Below, piece by piece: positions 11,587 through 19,720 of a stretch of DNA of 19,720 nucleotides. Every line of letters starts with the position of its first letter. Within the stretch, counting starts at the first letter, position 1. Below the pieces are notes generated by a model. That model searched no databases. It was not told the origin of the DNA and worked only from the letters and a program-made list of their open reading frames with translations. The DNA lies in the UHGV virus genome UHGV-0194792, one strand, 5' to 3'. Position numbers and translations under genes: made by a program. This stretch comes from a virus.

Positions 11587-12357
11587 ATGCATCGTATAGA
11601 CACGAAAACCGCGCAGAAGGATAAGTTCGGCGCGGGTAAGAACGGTTTTACCCGTGGTAACCCCCAGACCGGCACGCCTGCCACCGATCTGGATGATGAC
11701 TACTTTGACATGTTGCAGGAAGAGCTTTGTGGCGTGGTGGAGGCATCCGGTGCCAGCCTGGAGAAGGGGAGGCACGACCAGCTGCTTACCGCGCTTCGTG
11801 CGCTGCTGTTAAGCCGCAAGAATCCGTTTGGCGATATCAAATCGGATGGCACCGTGAAAACAGCTCTCGAAAACCTTGGTTTGGGAGAAGGCTCTGCATT
11901 ACCTGTTGGTGTGCCTGTTCCATGGCCTTCAGCCACACCGCCAACAGGCTGGCTGAAATGCAACGGTGCGGCTTTTTCTGCTGAAGAATACCCGGAACTG
12001 GCAAAGGCTTATCCGACAAATAAATTGCCTGATTTACGTGGTGAGTTTATTCGTGGCTGGGATGACGGGCGCGGTATTGATGCAGGACGTGTTTTATTGA
12101 GCATTCAGACAGGGATGCTGGAAAAACACCGCCATATTGTTGTTGCCAATGATGGTTACGACACAAAAGATGAATGGGAACTGGCTACGATTTTCAAAAA
12201 GACATACACACAAGGACGGGGACTTGATGCCGCAAATACAGGAGGGAGTCTGATCCCATCACCGACACTTCATTCACGAGGGAGTATCGGTAATACTGGC
12301 GGGAGGGAAACCCGTCCACGAAATATTGCATTTAACTATATCGTGAGGGCTGCATAA
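11587..12357 (+). CDS. tail fibre protein: constant N-terminus fused to the currently expressed variable C-terminal cassette
   Basis: 256-aa ORF with GGAG RBS. The C-terminal part carries an [12 protein letters not shown] collar-like motif. A hix/gix-like crossover site lies inside the gene at 11864-11889, so codons after about 11877 belong to the invertible segment. Confidence 0.8.
11864..11889. other. invertase crossover site, left (hix/gix-like, 12-2-12: CTCTCGAAAACC TT GGTTTGGGAGAA)
   Basis: Imperfect palindrome with an AAACC-NN-GGTTT core resembling hixL/gix as I recall them. 15 bp (11876-11890) are a perfect inverted repeat of 13731-13745. Confidence 0.7.
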
Positions 12358-12959
12358 TGGATAACGCCGTATTAAATAGCGAGCTTATTGCCACGAAGGC
12401 GGGGAATATTACCGTCTATAACTATGATGGTAAAACTCGGGAATATATTTCTACTTCAAATGAATATCTTGCCATTGGTGTCGGTATCCCTGCATATTCC
12501 TGTCTGGATGAACCTGGTATACATAAGGCGGGTTATGCTATCTGCCGTTCGATGGATTTAAACTCATGGGAATATGTGCCAGACCATCGCGGTGAAATCG
12601 TCTATAACACCGAAACGGGAGACGCCAAAGAAATCACAGCTCCGGGTGATTATCCTGAAAATACAACCACTATCGCCCCGTTAACGCCATTCGATAAATG
12701 GGATGGTAAGAAATGGGTGACCGATACTGAGGCACAGCATAGCGCCGCAGTAGACGCGGCAGAAGCACAGCGTCAGTCACTGATTGATACTGCAATGGCT
12801 TCCATCAGTCTGATTCAACTGAAATTGCAGGCCGGGCGGAAGCTGACGCAGGCAGAAACCACCCGACTTAACGCTGTGCTGGATTACATTGACGCGGTGA
12901 CGGCAACAGATACGAGCACCGCGCCGGATGTCATCTGGCCTGAACTGCCGGAGGCGTAG
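12357..12959 (+). CDS. tail fibre assembly protein (active orientation)
   Basis: 200-aa ORF coupled to the fibre gene (stop/start overlap at 12357) with GAGGG RBS. Its C-terminus resembles that of the opposite-strand assembly gene. Confidence 0.7.
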   Translation: MDNAVLNSELIATKAGNITVYNYDGKTREYISTSNEYLAIGVGIPAYSCLDEPGIHKAGYAICRSMDLNSWEYVPDHRGEIVYNTETGDAKEITAPGDYPENTTTIAPLTPFDKWDGKKWVTDTEAQHSAAVDAAEAQRQSLIDTAMASISLIQLKLQAGRKLTQAETTRLNAVLDYIDAVTATDTSTAPDVIWPELPEA

Positions 12960-13371
12960 GCCATTCAATATCTGGCGCACCGGAAGTATCGACCAGTTCC
13001 AGTGCGTCCAGGTAATCCAGCCACAAATTATATTGCGCCAGTTCGTCACCTTTCAGACGACCAATAGCCGCTTTACCAGGCCATTGTTTACTGTTCATAT
13101 AATCGTTGGCCTGATTAATCAATTGCTGCTTCTCCAGTTCGGCTGCAGCAATTTGTTCCTCATGTGTTGGTGGTGGAATTTCGGACCATGCAGGAAAACC
13201 ATTTTCTCCAGCGATACGGATTTTTCCTTTCGGCGGTAATCCGGAAAACTCAATATACACTTGCTCATCAACTTCAACAGCATCATCTGGCCATGAGTCA
13301 GCTTGAGTGTAATCCTCTTTCATCTCCAGCGGATAGAAAGAGTTTGTAGTCGCGGAATATATGTAATTCAT
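12931..13371 (-). CDS. tail fibre assembly protein (alternative, silent orientation)
   Basis: 146-aa minus-strand ORF with GGAGTG RBS. Its C-terminus (LDYLDALELVDTSGAPDIEWP) parallels that of the + strand assembly protein (LDYIDAVTATDTSTAPDVIWP). It lies 22 nt downstream of the alternative fibre cassette. Confidence 0.7.
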   Translation of the reverse strand: MNYIYSATTNSFYPLEMKEDYTQADSWPDDAVEVDEQVYIEFSGLPPKGKIRIAGENGFPAWSEIPPPTHEEQIAAAELEKQQLINQANDYMNSKQWPGKAAIGRLKGDELAQYNLWLDYLDALELVDTSGAPDIEWPTPPAVQAR

Positions 13372-13392
13372 TTTTCACTCCATATAGCTAAA

Positions 13393-13745
13393 TTAACAGC
13401 CTAACGCTAAAAATGAAGCGCCGAGGCCAGGAGTACTGGCTCTGGATATAAATTTAACCGGGTCGGGACTAAAACCTGCACAGGCAATATAACCAACAGC
13501 CCCGCTATCTGGTGTATAGTCTTGTGAGACCAAAACACGCAGACATCTGTTTGGAAATGCAATTGGGAAATGGGTTACTACATCCTGTGCAATGCCTGGA
13601 GCGCCGATTGAGCCCCACTGAAGAATAAAACCTGATGGTAATTTTTGATATCCAGTACCTGAAACAGAAAGCGTGAAGCTACCCATATCAGGTATCTGAT
13701 TCGCCCCTGTCCCTACATTCCTTTTAGCCGCTTCTCCCAAACCAA
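13393..13745 (-). CDS. promoterless alternative tail-fibre C-terminal cassette
   Basis: The minus-strand frame is continuous with the crossover site: after inversion, ...ENL of the constant part joins [13 protein letters not shown]... in frame. Contains an ILQWGS motif typical of fibre tips. The 13 codons upstream of the site in the track ORF are not expected to be translated. Confidence 0.65.
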
Positions 13746-13757
13746 CGTTTATGAAAA
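13732..13757. other. invertase crossover site, right (hix/gix-like: TTCTCCCAAACC AA CGTTTATGAAAA)
   Basis: Inverted copy of the left site with the same central dinucleotide on the opposite strand. Lies about 55 bp upstream of the invertase start. Confidence 0.7.
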
Positions 13758-13811
13758 TGCAGAAATAACGAGCAAATGGCATCATTCCTGCTTTTGTCAG
13801 GGGGATCTACC

Positions 13812-14366
13812 ATGCTTATTGGCTATGTACGCGTATCAACAAATGACCAGAACACAGATCTACAACGTAATGCGCTGAACTGTGCAGGATGCGAGCTGAT
13901 TTTTGAAGACAAGATAAGCGGCACAAAGTCCGAAAGGCCGGGACTGAAAAAACTGCTCAGGACATTATCGGCAGGTGACACTCTGGTTGTCTGGAAGCTG
14001 GATCGGCTGGGGCGTAGTATGCGGCATCTTGTCGTGTTGGTGGAGGAGTTGCGCGAACGAGGCATCAACTTTCGTAGTCTGACGGATTCAATTGATACCA
14101 GCACACCAATGGGGCGTTTTTTCTTTCATGTGATGGGTGCCCTGGCTGAAATGGAGCGTGAACTGATTGTTGAACGAACAAAAGCTGGACTGGAAGCTGC
14201 TCGCGCACAGGGACGAATTGGTGGACGTCGTCCCAAACTTACACCAGAACAATGGGCGCAGGCCGGACGATTAATTGCAGCAGGAATTCCTCGCCAGAAG
14301 GTGGCGATCATCTATGATGTTGGTGTATCGACACTGTATAAGAAGTTTCCGGTCGGAGATAAATGA
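13812..14366 (+). CDS. serine DNA invertase (Gin/Pin/Hin/Cin family)
   Basis: The N-terminus MLIGYVRVSTNDQNTDLQRNAL with catalytic Ser in VRVST, and blocks such as GDTLVVWKLDRLGRSM and MGRFFFHVMGALAEMERELI, match my recollection of Gin/Pin. ATG at 13812 with a GGGGGA RBS is preferred over the track start at 13776. A C-terminal helix-turn-helix region is present. Confidence 0.9.
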   Translation: MLIGYVRVSTNDQNTDLQRNALNCAGCELIFEDKISGTKSERPGLKKLLRTLSAGDTLVVWKLDRLGRSMRHLVVLVEELRERGINFRSLTDSIDTSTPMGRFFFHVMGALAEMERELIVERTKAGLEAARAQGRIGGRRPKLTPEQWAQAGRLIAAGIPRQKVAIIYDVGVSTLYKKFPVGDK

Positions 14367-14541
14367 AACCGCAGGCTCGTCGTATGCAAGAAAGTGCTGC
14401 GGCTGGCTGGCCAGCTTCTGATAGTGCGAATATTGAATGATTTCCAGCCGTTATCGATTTTACATATTTTTGTATGAGAGGATTTTTACCTCCTCCCACC
14501 TATCCTCCATGACTTTACGCCACTGTCTCTAGGGCTGCTAT

Positions 14542-14556
14542 GTGCCAGAAGCGGAC
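14542..14556 (+). repeat. direct repeat copy 1 (GTGCCAGAAGCGGAC; extended imperfect match about 14531-14570)
   Basis: 15-bp perfect core read directly. The second copy is at 15595-15609. The two copies bracket the HEPN-like gene. Confidence 0.6.
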
Positions 14557-14604
14557 TTCATTAGATTCTTTGTTTTTTGTGTTAATATACTTACAATCCC
14601 ATCA

Positions 14605-15420
14605 TCAACTAACAACCCAATCATCAGATAATATATCACTGATATTGAAAATATAGGTATGGTTATTTTTACCATCTGAAATGACGATTTTTTTTAAGTT
14701 GAATCTTTCTGATATGATATGCGTTGCAAATTGTGGGATTATTAAAAACAAAGCCTCTACCTTACTGATTAATTCAATGTTGACTTTAGGTCTGAAGTTT
14801 GCATCATGAACCACTTTGTGCCTAATGTAAAATGCTTCCTCTATGAGGGCTCTCCAGTCTGGAAATATATTTTCTATCGATAAATCTTGGGAAATTTGGC
14901 CACTCAGACCGCAAGGAGATATATTAGTTGTACATATGTAGTTTAAAAAACTCTCACCCCACATGCCATTATATGCTTCTTCAAGGTCGTTTAAGTTTTG
15001 AAAGTTAAAGCTTTTACTCAATAACTCTGATAGATTTATCTCAGTGTTTATATTGATAGATGTTTCTGTTCTCATTTTAGATAGTAGTGTTGTAATTCTA
15101 GATTCATCAACTGAATGCACGAAAACAAAAACGTCTCTAAAATATGTTTCCCAGCAACTGATTAGAAATACAAAATATTGTCGATATGCTGTTTTATAAA
15201 TATCTATTTTCTTATCTTTCGTTGAAATAAGTGAATGCATAAGTCGACAATTTTCTGCAAAATTTAGTAGGAAAGACATTGAGAAGTCTTCTATAGCTCC
15301 TCTTGATTCGCGAAGAGATAGCAATTCATCAATAATTTTTTTATTGATTTTCCTAATCTTTTTCAATTGCATGCCTCGTTTTTGCTTAAGTAAAGTTGAT
15401 TTTGGAGTTTCGTCAATCAT
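14605..15420 (-). CDS. hypothetical protein with R-x4-H (HEPN-like) motif; possible Abi-type effector
   Basis: 271-aa ORF in a visibly AT-rich segment, rich in Lys/Ile/Asn. Motif RHKVVH at about residue 205 fits the HEPN signature R-[NHQ]-x3-H. The start is uncertain: 15420 has a weak RBS, and an alternative ATG is at 15372. Confidence 0.5.
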   Translation of the reverse strand: MIDETPKSTLLKQKRGMQLKKIRKINKKIIDELLSLRESRGAIEDFSMSFLLNFAENCRLMHSLISTKDKKIDIYKTAYRQYFVFLISCWETYFRDVFVFVHSVDESRITTLLSKMRTETSININTEINLSELLSKSFNFQNLNDLEEAYNGMWGESFLNYICTTNISPCGLSGQISQDLSIENIFPDWRALIEEAFYIRHKVVHDANFRPKVNIELISKVEALFLIIPQFATHIISERFNLKKIVISDGKNNHTYIFNISDILSDDWVVS

Positions 15421-15594
15421 GTTATCTTATTAGATTTAAAGATAAAGTAACTTTTTGCATAAGCTTTGCGACAAAGATAGCTTTAATGAAAGGCCTTATA
15501 GAGCTACTTGGCCATAAAAATTTTTACGATGAATTCGAATTCAGCGTCCGCTCCTCGCTTAAAGCTGTCCTTGGGCCTAACCTACGATAGCTTC

Positions 15595-15609
15595 GTGCCA
15601 GAAGCGGAC
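15595..15609 (+). repeat. direct repeat copy 2 (GTGCCAGAAGCGGAC)
   Basis: Identical 15-mer to 14542-14556. Flanking bases are partly conserved (GCTnnGTGCCAGAAGCGGAC...TAnGAT). Confidence 0.6.
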
Positions 15610-15896
15610 ATTACTAAGATAGTAACGTATCAAACGGTGGGACAAGTCATGCCAAGTGCGGAAGTGGCTAACAACCATCTGTGTTGTTTAACGGGGAACA
15701 GGTCATTCCATTGACCCGATCATTTATGTTGCGCTGACGCTTAGGTGATAAAAAGCCGCCTATGCCCGTCTATCTTTGGGGATCCGCAATGAAGTTGATT
15801 GTGAGGTTATTAGGCTGGGTCTTCTCATTTATAAGTTGTTGAAGTAGCAACGAATTATCGAGCGATTTATCCCGATTAAATGTCTCACTATTACTC

Positions 15897-17021
15897 TTAA
15901 TCGGTAAATTCATAGTTTGGCCGCATTGAGAAACGCCACAGAGGCAGGCCTCCCCCTTTGTAATCATCAGGGATGGTTACCGTGAAAAGTCTGACATTCT
16001 GCCGGGTGTCAACTGACCTGATCTGGCTGTCGTGTACAGTCTGCTCGTTAAAGGCCGACGTGACCAGCGAACTCAGCGTACCTATAAAGTCGAAACCCTG
16101 TCTTTTGTAATTTTCGTCGTCTTCCGGGGAAAATGTGTATCGGATGCTCTCAAGCTGACCATCAGTGAATATTGCCTCCGATCCGGGGCAGAGCCACTCT
16201 CCGTAGCGCATCAGATGAAACGCCGTGTTCATTTCAAATTTATCCGTTACTTGTCTGTCATTGCAGTAAATTTTAATCTCGCCAATTGTAAAATGGGCGA
16301 TGCCTTCGGGACTAACTGAAACTTCTTTGGTCCGGTCGGGGATAAGCTCAAAAACCAGATCGGGTTCTGTTGCTATCGATAGGTCGCCCAGCAGGTACAT
16401 CTCACTTTTTGCGAGCGCCGAGGCCTGCGTCAAGGTATGTTCACGCTCTAGCTCCTTCATTGAGGAGCGTGCAACCAGCGCCCACCGGCGCAGCATCCTG
16501 ATGTAGATGGCATAATAAACTGGAATACCATGGAGCTCACCGTACTTTTCAACCTTATCACTGTACGATTTCTTCAGGCGATAATCGTCAGCCACGTCAT
16601 CCGCGTTAAAGTTTTTTACTTCCACAAAGATCTGACGGCGATCCTTCAGTATAATGCGATAGTCAGGTGCCACCAGATCGGGATCGGCTGACATCAAGTC
16701 TCCGGCGTCTTCCTGTTTAAGAAACTGGCAGTGGTTCAGTGCGGCGCAAACGTGTTTAAATAGGTTTTCTATTCTTTTCCCGTTCAGCAGAATTGGATTC
16801 TGATGGGAAGCGATTAATGACGTGGTGACCTTTTGTATAAAGTCATCCTGGTGCTCGGGGTTTTTAATATCGTAATTATAGATCTGGCCCAACGAGGAAA
16901 AAAGCTCAAAGGCTTCAAATCGTTCGGGATTCCTCTTGATTCTTTCCATTAATGACTCCGCAGCTAATAAATACAACGAAATGAGATCACTTGTTTCTCT
17001 GAAGTTACCTGAAAACTGCAT
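15897..17021 (-). CDS. hypothetical protein with PD-(D/E)xK nuclease-like motif
   Basis: 374-aa ORF. The segment APDYRIILKDRRQIFVEVK carries PD followed 13 residues later by E-V-K, as in restriction-endonuclease-fold active sites. It lies 70 bp downstream of and co-directional with the FRG-like gene. Confidence 0.5.
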   Translation of the reverse strand: MQFSGNFRETSDLISLYLLAAESLMERIKRNPERFEAFELFSSLGQIYNYDIKNPEHQDDFIQKVTTSLIASHQNPILLNGKRIENLFKHVCAALNHCQFLKQEDAGDLMSADPDLVAPDYRIILKDRRQIFVEVKNFNADDVADDYRLKKSYSDKVEKYGELHGIPVYYAIYIRMLRRWALVARSSMKELEREHTLTQASALAKSEMYLLGDLSIATEPDLVFELIPDRTKEVSVSPEGIAHFTIGEIKIYCNDRQVTDKFEMNTAFHLMRYGEWLCPGSEAIFTDGQLESIRYTFSPEDDENYKRQGFDFIGTLSSLVTSAFNEQTVHDSQIRSVDTRQNVRLFTVTIPDDYKGGGLPLWRFSMRPNYEFTD

Positions 17022-17090
17022 TCTGCACGGCGATTAAAGCGGCTATGGGCCCACGCTGGCACACAGGCGTGCCGTGCGACTAAAGCGCTA

Positions 17091-18461
17091 TCAGATTCGT
17101 CCATCGTATAGTTTTGCAATTTCCGTAGCAGCCTTCTCAATGCCGGGGTACACCGTGCTTTCGTTAATGCCAAGGCGGCTCAGTTGCTGCATCAGATGCT
17201 CTTTGTTTCTAATAACAAGCTTTTTGATGTTCAGCGTACTGAGTCCCGTTTCCGGTAGGTCTACGTTTTCACCAAAGAGCAGGAAAGCGCCTGATTGGGA
17301 CGAAATACGTGCGTTACTGAGCCGACCTTTGACCACAACAATTTTACTTAGGTGGACCGGATCGATGATGCTTTTGAAATAGGACTTTTCATCGCGGATC
17401 AGGTGTAGTAGTTGTCCGCACTCTTCAGATTCGTTAAACGCCGGAATGGTGAGATTAGTTTTCAGGCTGCTTTTGAAACGAGAGGGAAGACGGGAAAGAT
17501 TGGCTATGCAACTTACGGTATCCGAGTCGAAAAACTTAATTTCACTTTTGGGCGTCGTCAGAATAATGACGTTCCCGTCAATTTCATGATTATTTTCATC
17601 GTGCTTGATTTTAGAGCAGGCAAAATATAGTGCGATCAAGGGGTTTGTTGATACATCAAGCAGGCGTGTGGGTAGGCCATAGTGTTGCATGCGCACGAGT
17701 TTATCTAGCATATACCGATCGTCTTTGAACTCGGCGGGCTGCACGGTCAGCAGCTCTGTTATCATGTCCGATTCGTGATGGCGGTAGCGATAGTTACCCT
17801 GAGTATCCTTGCGGAACAGTGAGGGTTCCAGTTGGTAGTTGATGTCCGAGTGACCGCGGTAAAATACCTCTTCATCGTTTCCCTGTGTATGATCGAGTAT
17901 CACCTGCAAGTACTGATTGATATTCGCAATGATCTCTAGTTCTTCATTATTCTCCGGTGCTTCCGCACTCGCTGCTGCGGGCTCAACATTAGAATAGCCT
18001 TCAAGGCCTAAAACACGCAGAATCTCATTTACGGAAATCTCTTTGACCGCCCAGAACGTTCTGTTTAGTCCGAAACTGCCCAGCTCCAGCTCACTTACGT
18101 ACTCTTTATCGCTGGTTAAAGGCTTGTAGCCGATATCACTGGTAATCTCATAATCAAACGCTAAAACTTTTTCTCTGTTATACACGGACGTACTTATCTT
18201 GCTGATTTTTCCTAAGCGGATGTGGCTGAAATAACCTATTTTTTCATTATCTTCATCGAATTCAATTTCCGGCTCGGACATAAATACAACGGGCAGTTCC
18301 TGAAGAAAATGATAGGTTTTTTCAGTCAGGGGAAGCAATCTGCTTCTAAGAGACTCTGGCGTGGATTCGAAGAGTCGCGACACAGGGAAAGAGTCATTGC
18401 CACTGGGTTCAGAAAAAAAAGTGTAGTATTTGGGGGTTCCGACAACGATAAGATTCAGCAT
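17091..18461 (-). CDS. FRG-domain-like protein with N- and C-terminal extensions
   Basis: 456-aa ORF with GAGGA RBS 8 nt upstream. Central blocks FYRGHSDINYQLEPSLFR and QHYGLPTRLLDVSTNPLIALYFA match my recollection of the Pfam FRG-domain signature. About 185 residues precede the domain. Confidence 0.55.
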   Translation of the reverse strand: MLNLIVVGTPKYYTFFSEPSGNDSFPVSRLFESTPESLRSRLLPLTEKTYHFLQELPVVFMSEPEIEFDEDNEKIGYFSHIRLGKISKISTSVYNREKVLAFDYEITSDIGYKPLTSDKEYVSELELGSFGLNRTFWAVKEISVNEILRVLGLEGYSNVEPAAASAEAPENNEELEIIANINQYLQVILDHTQGNDEEVFYRGHSDINYQLEPSLFRKDTQGNYRYRHHESDMITELLTVQPAEFKDDRYMLDKLVRMQHYGLPTRLLDVSTNPLIALYFACSKIKHDENNHEIDGNVIILTTPKSEIKFFDSDTVSCIANLSRLPSRFKSSLKTNLTIPAFNESEECGQLLHLIRDEKSYFKSIIDPVHLSKIVVVKGRLSNARISSQSGAFLLFGENVDLPETGLSTLNIKKLVIRNKEHLMQQLSRLGINESTVYPGIEKAATEIAKLYDGRI

Positions 18462-19000
18462 ACTTGCGATCCTCGCATAAGTTAAGTTTCTCTCTCATCA
18501 TGCCAGACTTGATAATTATTTAAACATCAGCGCTGCTATTTATATTTCACACCTTTTTGAGCCGAAACGACACTGCCATCGGTAAGCCCGGATGATACAT
18601 TCTGAAAATTCATCAGAAAAATTTACATCACGCTTTACTCCTGACGTATATCAGCACTAACGTGCCATTGCGCACGCGCTAGCTATTTAGTAGCGCGTTT
18701 CGGCGAAAAGAGATTCGGTAGTCAATGACTATATTTCGCTCATAACAGACATTCACTACAGTTGTGGCAGAAAGGTATGCATGCTGGGTGTGGGGAAGTC
18801 GTGAAAGAAAAGAAGACTGCAGTGCCGTTTGTCGTTACGTTTATCTTCATTGGCTATGCAAGTCGTAATACAAGGTGGGACAAAACTGAGACATATAAGG
18901 CCTCGCAATGGCTTGCAAGGCTTTACATGTTTTGATGTGGTGGGACGTGTGAGCGCAGTGTTGATGGGGTAATGCTTTGAATTAGAAGCGGATTCTTATA

Positions 19001-19046
19001 ATTCGTAATGCGAAGGTCGTAGGTTCGACTCCTATTATCGGCACCA
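19001..19046 (+). other. thrW: prophage attachment-site repeat (attR): 3' 46 nt of a tRNA-Thr gene, including T-arm and CCA end
   Basis: ATTCGTAATGCGAAGGTCGTAGGTTCGACTCCTATTATCGGCACCA matches the 3' part of E. coli tRNA-Thr (CGU) as I recall it, with a canonical GGTTCGACTCC T-arm. No matching 5' half is present upstream, so this is a partial copy and not a gene. Confidence 0.65.
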
Positions 19047-19643
19047 TTTAAATCAATAAGTTATCTCACATTTAAGTAAACTACGTTCTCCTCTTGTGCC
19101 TTTGATTTTGCTCGCGTGCGCGGTGAAATGCCTGACTGAAAGGTGAGCATATCGACGAACCATTTCGAGAGTTTCCCATCTGCTCATTTTTAAGTGCAAG
19201 CAGGAAAACACCGGACTAAACCAATCAGCTGTTCGAAAATGGCAAGCGGATTAATATGCCATGGCGGGGCAGCTTTGAGCCGCACGCATGGGGTGTGGCA
19301 AGCCTGATGGATTTTGCTGTGCCTGTGGTGGCGTGTTTGCTGGTTTGGCTGTTGGTTAAACGCGAAAGTCATAATGCCAGGGGAATACCGCAGGGTGTTC
19401 AGGTTTTGCATAAAAAAGCCCACCATTAAGGTGGGCAAAAGGAATGATTTATATTCTCTGAGAGAAACATTACATTTCTCCTTGTCACTTCTAACATAAA
19501 AATATGGAGAAATAATGGAGCTTATATTAATTGGCGATTAGGTAACCATGTGGTTATACAAAACAATACAGTTCTTTACATTTGCCTTGTTTTATGAATA
19601 CTCCTGAAGAGGTGTACAACATAATTAAACAAACAGGGTAAAT

Positions 19644-19720
19644 ATGAATATATTTGAACAAACTCCACCGAACCGCAGACGTTATGGTCTTGCTGCATTC
19701 ATTGGGCTGATTGCTGGCGT
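19644..19720 (+). CDS. yagU: chromosomal flank: N-terminus of a YagU-like inner membrane protein (3' end outside window)
   Basis: [25 protein letters not shown] matches my recollection of the E. coli YagU N-terminus. AGGG RBS upstream. The partial ORF runs off the window end. Confidence 0.45.

Follow-up and report, generated by a model that had tools for sequence, protein, structure and literature searches.

A candidate HEPN ribonuclease gene as swappable prophage cargo in Escherichia coli

What does a solitary, AT-rich gene with a HEPN motif do on a phage genome? The question is raised by the virus genome UHGV-0194792, a stretch of 19,720 nucleotides (nt) that was analysed at its full length and is called the window here, and specifically by its minus-strand open reading frame (ORF) from 14605 to 15420, whose product is a HEPN candidate. 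An earlier note on this DNA, made from its letters alone, had proposed an independently acquired single-gene module, possibly an abortive-infection (Abi)-like effector. Our analysis leads to a similar answer. The gene is AT-rich cargo in a swappable slot that holds different, largely defence-type genes in Escherichia coli prophages, and its product is predicted to be an Abi-like effector. To the reading that it is a stand-alone ribonuclease (RNase) of the RiboL-PSP family, carried as prophage cargo and serving an abortive-infection-type defence, we assign a probability of roughly 0.6.

The HEPN gene and its family

Read from its ATG as the longest ORF, the gene comprises 271 codons. The true start is probably located 17 to 19 codons downstream, at 15372 (ATG, M17) or 15366 (TTG, L19), with a product of 255 or 253 amino acids (aa), because the N-termini of the relatives align at MKKIRK and a coding sequence of 762 nt is annotated for the same sequence in the isolated phage PhiR11_1. 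The guanine-plus-cytosine (GC) content is 31% for the ORF (0.314; at third codon positions, GC3, 0.277) and 0.321 for the stretch between two direct repeats (14557 to 15594), compared with 45 to 47% in the two downstream cargo genes (0.468 and 0.452), 0.497 in the pin gene, and 55.5% (0.555) in the tail module, which bears out the marked AT richness reported before.

A sequence search of 5.8 billion proteins yielded 71 relatives, whose sources include Proteus, Enterobacter, Cronobacter, Thalassomonas, Parashewanella, Tolumonas, Sulfuricurvum, and Bacteroidetes, and a profile search (E ≤ 0.001) found 451 family representatives among 1.84 billion, nearly all of them 250 to 280 aa long. Judged by these matches, the family is small and uniform. 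The Pfam family PF18735 (HEPN_RiboL-PSP) is matched by 26 of the 30 aligned relatives (E < 0.01); in a rescan of ten relatives, nine matched it, six of them at 33.9 to 39.2 bits and hence over the Pfam cut-off of 28.4 bits. The membership of the window protein follows through its close homologues (53 to 56% identity). Apart from weak Tad2-like matches at the C-terminus, no second Pfam domain was found in the family.

Two motifs stand out in the alignment of 30 sequences. The RHKVVH codons (R200-H205; 14806 to 14823, minus strand) represent the predicted catalytic Rx4H site, where R200, H201, H205, D206, N208, and R210 are invariant, and the ETYFRD codons (E91-D96; 15133 to 15150, minus strand) represent the acidic Ex3[KR] motif of HEPN helix 2, where the same holds for E91, T92, R95, and D96. 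Both motifs are retained, as RH[KR]xxH and ETFFRD, in relatives down to 27 to 31% identity. In the published description of catalytic HEPN domains (Anantharaman et al., PMC3710099), helix 3 ends with Rx4-6H, in which the arginine is followed by a polar residue, helix 2 carries Ex3[KR], and the segment joining these two helices often contains inserts. The window protein fits this description, since a polar histidine follows the arginine, the motif is placed at a helix end, Ex3R lies in helix 2, and the insert between helices 2 and 3 is large.

The AlphaFold model calculated from the alignment is of high confidence (predicted local distance difference test, pLDDT, 83.7; predicted template modelling score, pTM, 0.84) and shows the layout of a catalytic HEPN protein, i.e., helix 72-104 with ETYFRD, an insert (105-188), helix 189-205 ending with RHKVVH, a loop, and helix 215-240. 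The earlier note had placed the motif near the end of a helical region and had made its proposal depend on a HEPN-like fold; in the model, the helix terminates with the motif and such a fold is predicted. The HEPN toxins of HEPN/MNT modules (5yep, 7ae2, and 8xdj) are among its best structural matches, and nothing was significant in Foldseek searches of the model against PDB and BFVD. Sequence searches of PDB, whether started from the single sequence or from the family profile, yielded chance-level matches only, and T4 beta-glucosyltransferase, which appeared as a PDB relative (E 0.02), is regarded as spurious. By itself, the fold evidence for HEPN is supportive and not decisive, but the combination of profile match, motif geometry, and predicted fold makes a strong case.

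With the published PF18735 family (PMC3710099), the relatives share profile membership in most cases, the Rx4H motif with a polar histidine after the arginine, Ex3R in helix 2, and the occurrence in bacteria. They differ in the features from which the family took its name: the HEPN protein is not fused to an endoribonuclease L-PSP domain, and no ParB-family neighbour or ParB operon was seen in the contexts of relatives examined. Both features are found in some members only and are not required by the profile. Within PF18735, the subfamily of the window presents itself as a compact stand-alone protein of 250 to 280 aa whose C-terminus has a beta-hairpin and a DILxxDW tail of its own.

The prophage slot and its junction element

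The stretch from 14400 to 15760 has a 100% identical counterpart in several E. coli strains, including ECONIH1. The gene order of the window starts with the Mu-type contractile-tail/baseplate module of a prophage, followed by an invertible tail-fibre segment with pinE, three cargo genes on the minus strand (for the HEPN protein, the product of a 374-aa ORF, and a 456-aa FRG-domain protein), an integrase remnant, and yagU. The cargo slot thus lies between the pin invertase and the attachment-site arm. Its upstream edge is the pinE-type serine DNA invertase gene (Resolvase and HTH_7; 13776 to 14366, plus strand). Just downstream of it lies the conserved left flank (14367 to 14556, plus strand), and the conserved right flank (18720 to 19100, plus strand) precedes the integrase remnant and the chromosomal yagU gene. 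About 395 of 5426 complete E. coli genomes match solely the 157 to 190 nt after pin, and the homology of the left flank in other genomes ends at 14555 to 14562, i.e., at the end of the first repeat copy.

Other strains with the same two flanks harbour different cargo, e.g., SMODS with SLATT, HNH with AAA and FRG, an S1 peptidase, a RES NAD+ phosphorylase, or DUF6602, and one alternative content of the slot, at the e14/icd site, consists of a hypothetical gene with DUF3800. The backbones that bear the slot comprise Mu-type-tail prophages, e14-like elements, and lambda-like phages. Among the latter, the isolated phage PhiR11_1 (PV340547.1, locus L132), whose backbone is otherwise unrelated to the Mu-type-tail prophage of the window, carries the window positions 14397 to 18491 at 99.4% identity. 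The match resumes beyond an IS2 insertion of the phage just after the FRG gene (window, 18485 to 18867; 96.4%). Altogether, 14397 to 18867 of the window correspond to 42949 to 48758 of the phage, and the three-gene cargo block is placed between the tail-fibre genes and the att end. The host listed for PhiR11_1 is K-12 MG1655, and the sister record PhiR11_1_star lists ECOR13; no published source of the phage was found in a literature search. Since the HEPN family is carried by a phage that plates on K-12, it is directly testable. Beyond the right flank, 136 nt of the window (19230 to 19361) are 84% like a stretch just upstream of the left flank in PhiR11_1 (42779 to 42914), which may be the remnant of an earlier rearrangement.

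Conserved flanks around quickly swapped, largely defence-type genes are common to this slot and to other variable cargo slots, i.e., the P2/P4 hotspots (PMC13586616) and the position of mcrA after pinE in e14. The presence of the same cargo block in unrelated phage backbones is a further likeness to P2/P4-type hotspots, from which the slot of the window differs by its location after pin and by the separation of its cassettes by a specific palindromic element of about 80 nt. Direct homology of the slot with the e14 element of K-12 was rejected, since the conserved flanks are missing there, although the restriction gene mcrA has the corresponding post-pinE position.

The palindromic element was recognized from direct repeats, which had already been reported to bracket the gene. 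The exact 15-mer GTGCCAGAAGCGGAC occurs twice in the window in the same orientation, on both sides of the HEPN cassette (14542 to 14556 and 15595 to 15609), and the similarity continues over 27 nt (81% identity); two matches were not obtained in any of 200 shuffled controls. Both copies are the cores of a larger junction element. A full copy of about 80 nt (15538 to 15618, plus strand; nhmmer, E 9.5e-18) separates the HEPN cassette from the next cargo gene, and a half copy, consisting of the 3' hairpin half (14519 to 14565, plus strand; nhmmer, E 1e-6), has its core in the final bases of the left flank. The consensus reads GTCCGCTCCTCGCTCACAGCGGACCTT, about 18 variable nt, and GTCCGCTTTGTGCCAGAAGCGGAC-RTT, corresponding to two hairpins that share a 7-bp stem, with the second hairpin as the approximate reverse complement of the first, and the DNA fold of the full copy has an energy of -11.7 kcal/mol (z, -2.3).

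Further copies are located at the cassette junctions of other slots (loci L002, L003, L004, L133, L134, and L136), in inverted orientation at the cargo-facing end of the right flank (L004, L134, and L135), and on both sides of an FRG cassette beside Hachiman (L137). About 28 kb of variable DNA contained about 11 credible copies (≤3 mismatches in the 15-nt core), compared with about 0.7 expected by chance. A BLAST search with the 81-nt element against E. coli genomes (28-Gb database) is uninformative on copy number, as short diverged copies miss the E-value limit. The element has no Rfam match, and no paper containing the sequence was found. In Leclercia, Klebsiella, Pectobacterium, Kosakonia, Phytobacter, and Citrobacter (loci within L021-L087), it borders LysE, GNAT, TetR, AraC, and aldo-keto reductase genes. 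It therefore behaves like a dispersed palindrome resembling repetitive extragenic palindromes (REP) and is not specific for defence genes. An interpretation of the repeats as insertion scars, target-site duplications, or att sites of the HEPN cassette was discarded, as the motif also occurs at the borders of unrelated cassettes and of ordinary accessory genes in other Enterobacterales. A reading of the repeats as Pin/Gin recombination sites was likewise set aside, as they are not known to resemble the gix/hix consensus.

The homology between phage backbones stops exactly at the junction element, which makes it a candidate crossover point for cassette exchange; on this pattern of sequence breaks, it may be the site at which cassettes are swapped. 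The element at the cassette borders is thus a concrete candidate for the route of defence-cassette swapping that was left open by the study of the P2/P4 hotspots (PMC13586616).

A separate observation concerns a short tyrosine-recombinase gene or remnant that ends beside the junction motif in Phytobacter (L062, 4378 to 5094) and in one E. coli slot (L002, 7216 to 8386). After that recombinase, several cassettes (CdiI immunity, Sel1 protein) are split by the same motif, resulting in a faintly integron-like array.

No neighbour is universally conserved in about 30 genomic contexts of HEPN relatives. One relative is located between gpS and gpV in a P2-like prophage of Enterobacter kobei, others lie beside lysogeny genes, i.e., near a cI-type repressor (L142) and between the AimR and integrase genes of a prophage (L143), and further ones are placed in chromosomal defence islands. 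The coincidence of the GC trough with the repeat boundaries, the lack of a conserved neighbour among the relatives, and the occurrence of the adjacent 374-aa gene elsewhere without the HEPN gene all agree with the independently acquired single-gene module of the earlier note.

Abortive infection and its rivals

If the HEPN protein is an abortive-infection effector, the lysogen would produce it in a latent oligomeric form, as with other solo HEPN defence proteins, and infection by another phage would switch it on. The activated protein would then cut RNA (tRNA, mRNA, or rRNA) by the metal-independent Rx4H mechanism, and the cutting would halt phage production, i.e., lead to abortive infection. 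The family itself was defined in 2013 and is held in Pfam, and the concept of prophage-encoded solo HEPN proteins for abortive infection is established; the member found here matches no model in PADLOC v2.0.0.

Besides the family match with its invariant motifs, the predicted fold, and the location among largely defence-type cargo, this reading is supported by two precedents. HepS of the Salmonella prophage Gifsy-1 is a single HEPN abortive-infection protein, a latent tetramer and anticodon nuclease that is triggered by a tail tip (PMC13043305). The window protein shares with HepS the status of a single HEPN protein, the cargo position in a temperate phage, the lack of a partner gene, and the canonical Rx4H motif. 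There is no detectable sequence relationship between the two, and the motif is R100-H105 in HepS compared with R200-H205 in the window protein. The trigger, the siphovirus tail-tip protein J, is a feature of HepS, whose gene lies between replication and antirepressor genes, whereas the window gene follows the tail-fibre/pin module. The second precedent, PD-T4-5 of E. coli, is a single AbiF/D-like gene on a plasmid that mediates abortive infection (Vassallo et al. 2022, PMC9519451). Like it and the lactococcal AbiF/AbiD proteins (Abi_2), the HEPN gene is a single gene of the HEPN type borne by a mobile element, and an abortive phenotype is the common property of those systems. The RiboL-PSP family has been described as distantly related to AbiF/AbiD (PMC3710099), and a review lists PF18735 under PD-T4-2, PD-T4-5, PD-T7-3, and ApeA (PMC10952713). 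Single-protein HEPN defences have been worked out only recently (HepS, Tha), and each family tested had a different trigger and RNA target.

Several results weigh against a stand-alone defence RNase. The match of the window protein itself to PF18735 (26.4 bits, E 7.8e-6) falls under the cut-off of 28.4 bits. PADLOC v2.0.0 has no family for the window protein at E ≤ 10 and none for three relatives at E ≤ 0.1. In the comparison with HEPN and Abi profiles proposed in the earlier note, PF18735 was matched below its cut-off and Abi_2 of Pfam gave no match. The lack of PADLOC and Abi_2 matches also sets the protein apart from PD-T4-5 and AbiF/AbiD. The scans of NCBIfam and PHROGs gave nothing useful, and PHROGs has no matching model. 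A scan for promoter and terminator consensus sequences showed no excess over shuffles, with no promoter upstream of the HEPN gene on its strand and no terminator. A literature search found no paper with an experimental test of this HEPN family. Finally, the frequent adjacency of TIR genes among the relatives suggests that some family members are not autonomous.

That adjacency also leads to the strongest rival, namely, an effector gated by a signal: upon infection, a TIR-domain enzyme (Thoeris-type) or a CD-NTase would make a nucleotide that binds the HEPN protein, partly via its Tad2-like tail, and activates it, and the solo prophage copy would need, or listen in on, a signal from another source within the cell. 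In six independent lineages (L006, L144, L149/L156, L159/L160, L163, and L177), HEPN relatives have a TIR gene as an immediate neighbour, on the same strand and with gaps of 9 to 125 nt, and the arrangement looks operon-like. The gene order is HEPN, ThsB_TIR, and ThsA_Macro in Proteus; TIR, HEPN, and ThsB_TIR in Parashewanella; ThsB_TIR, TIR-SLOG, MazG_C, UDG-like, and HEPN on marine contigs; and TIR-SLOG, HEPN, and ThsB_TIR in L163. In L160 a TIR-SIR2 fusion stands beside the HEPN relative, and in L177 a TIR gene accompanies a relative of only 26% identity. In a new sample of 61 neighbour proteins, TIR_2 was the family seen most often, and a CBASS pair of CD-NTase and Cap15 adjoins the HEPN relative in L146-L148.

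The tail provides the second argument for signal gating. The last 14 to 33 residues or so of the family (PYIF-x3-DIL-x2-DW-x-V) resemble the C-terminus of Tad2/DUF2829, and in the window the corresponding SDILSDDWVVS (residues 261 to 271; 14608 to 14640, minus strand) matches the C-terminal motif of Tad2 and AcrIIA7. With Tad2 (PF11195; 8v3e, 9eib, and 8sme) and AcrIIA7, the family shares the C-terminal ...S-x-x-D-I-L-A-x-D-W-x-I-V-E, formed by a strand, a short helix, and a strand. PF11195 is matched by seven of the 30 relatives, all under the cut-off (best, 23 bits compared with 25, model positions 41 to 72 of 73; noted for P0007, P0009, P0014, P0020, and P0028), and has no match in the window protein itself. 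A search of PDB with the tail profile returned the Tad2 structures 8v3e and 9eib (E 0.0014) and, more weakly, AcrIIA7 and SPO1 Gp34.65. The pocket of Tad2 for glycocyclic ADP-ribose (gcADPR) is lined by C-terminal helix alpha4 and the neighbouring strand beta6 (bioRxiv 10.1101/2023.11.15.567273), and the HEPN tail appears to correspond to this region, with a match to the beta6-alpha4-beta7 segment.

The likeness to Tad2 is confined to those 14 to 33 residues and stays under the Pfam cut-off. The rest of the small Tad2 fold, including the N-terminal half of the pocket, is absent, and Tad2 is a phage sponge without a nuclease domain. TIR and CD-NTase genes are missing from the vicinity of the HEPN gene in most contexts, among them the window, the P2-like prophage, and PhiR11_1, and the HEPN protein has no SLOG or Macro sensor domain as in known ThsA. 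Moreover, defence genes cluster anyway, and the counts of TIR adjacency stand without a background rate. Because most contexts lack such neighbours and the Tad2 similarity is short, signal gating is kept as a rival, which we consider rather unlikely. A broader and similarly doubtful proposal is that the compact HEPN family constitutes an undescribed effector class of TIR-based (Thoeris-like) immunity, with an RNase that would be gated by a TIR-made nucleotide, a C-terminal sensor for it that would share ancestry with Tad2, and solitary prophage copies that would act in trans on host-made signals. The combination of TIR adjacency and a Tad2-like tail is a hint of a link between the sponge fold and an effector sensor. 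This link and the junction element could matter more than the HEPN gene itself.

Another rival, a toxin that stabilises the prophage as part of a toxin-antitoxin or addiction module with an unrecognised small RNA or a small or overlapping ORF as the antitoxin, is improbable. The HEPN/MNT toxins among the best structural matches would fit, and so would the 174 untranslated nt upstream of the gene within the cassette and the weak 19-nt tandem repeat ACTAACAACCCAATCATCA, which is present in two copies across the stop codon (14589 to 14626). This repeat is unlike the antitoxin array of the ToxI type, and no array of that kind was found. Moreover, neither an MNT (nucleotidyltransferase) antitoxin gene nor any other conserved partner ORF occurs in the window or in the roughly 30 contexts of relatives. 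In comparison with the toxins of HEPN/MNT modules (SO_3166, PDB 5yep; 7ae2), the window protein is about twice as long, i.e., about twice the minimal size of a HEPN toxin, and has extra modules, as its C-terminus is extended and a large insert separates helices 2 and 3. The earlier note had reported no obvious adjacent antitoxin ORF, and indeed nothing antitoxin-like was found beside the HEPN gene. As to its suggestion of a small upstream RNA or peptide, the Rfam scan of 13700 to 19720 gave no match, no antitoxin-like ORF was detected, and the weak repeat at the stop codon is the sole tandem repeat.

The last rival, in which the gene would serve the phage as a counter-defence signal sponge via the Tad2-like tail or as a superinfection or host-takeover RNase in the lytic cycle, is very improbable: carriage by an isolated phage and the C-terminal motif common to the anti-defence proteins Tad2 and AcrIIA7 speak for it, but relatives are found in defence islands on chromosomes and form apparent operons with TIR genes, which belong to immunity and not to phages, the catalytic HEPN residues that a sponge would not need are invariant, and a b-region-type cargo slot would be typical of genes expressed in the lysogen.

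Neighbouring cargo genes and the tail-fibre segment

The next cargo gene (15897 to 17021, minus strand) encodes 374 aa (about 350 aa in relatives) and obtained no assignment from Pfam, NCBIfam, or PHROG. It contains a PD...E-V-K-like stretch (APDYRII...FVEVKNF), which suggests a PD-(D/E)xK nuclease. Its 43 relatives are mostly from Enterobacterales, one of them being cargo after the tail-fibre genes of a Morganella prophage. The ORF and the HEPN cassette are each present in 28 E. coli genomes and are adjacent in the genomes listed. It was nevertheless rejected as a partner of the HEPN gene, of which it is independent, as it is absent from every other HEPN context and its own relatives, e.g., one in an island of Pectobacterium and one at the Morganella prophage end, occur without a HEPN gene. 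Since each of the two genes is found elsewhere without the other, we attribute their co-occurrence to shared recent descent and not to a functional link.

The third cargo gene (17091 to 18461, minus strand) encodes the 456-aa FRG-domain protein, which matches PDC-S15, a PADLOC candidate for a single-gene defence (E 8e-99), and phrog_4962. Diverged FRG copies (76 to 79% DNA identity, 41% protein identity) are located in the same slot or beside Hachiman in other E. coli strains. The FRG gene was also rejected as a HEPN partner, because FRG occurs alone elsewhere, i.e., beside Hachiman and in a small integrative element.

Upstream of the slot, the invertible segment (12357 to 14366) consists of two opposed pairs of genes for a tail-fibre C-terminus and an assembly protein, together with the pinE-type serine invertase. 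It comprises Caudo_TAP genes on the plus strand (12357 to 12959) and on the minus strand (12931 to 13371) as well as a gp53-like tail-fibre C-terminus on the minus strand (13393 to 13785), and it is a host-range switch of the Mu/P1/e14 type.

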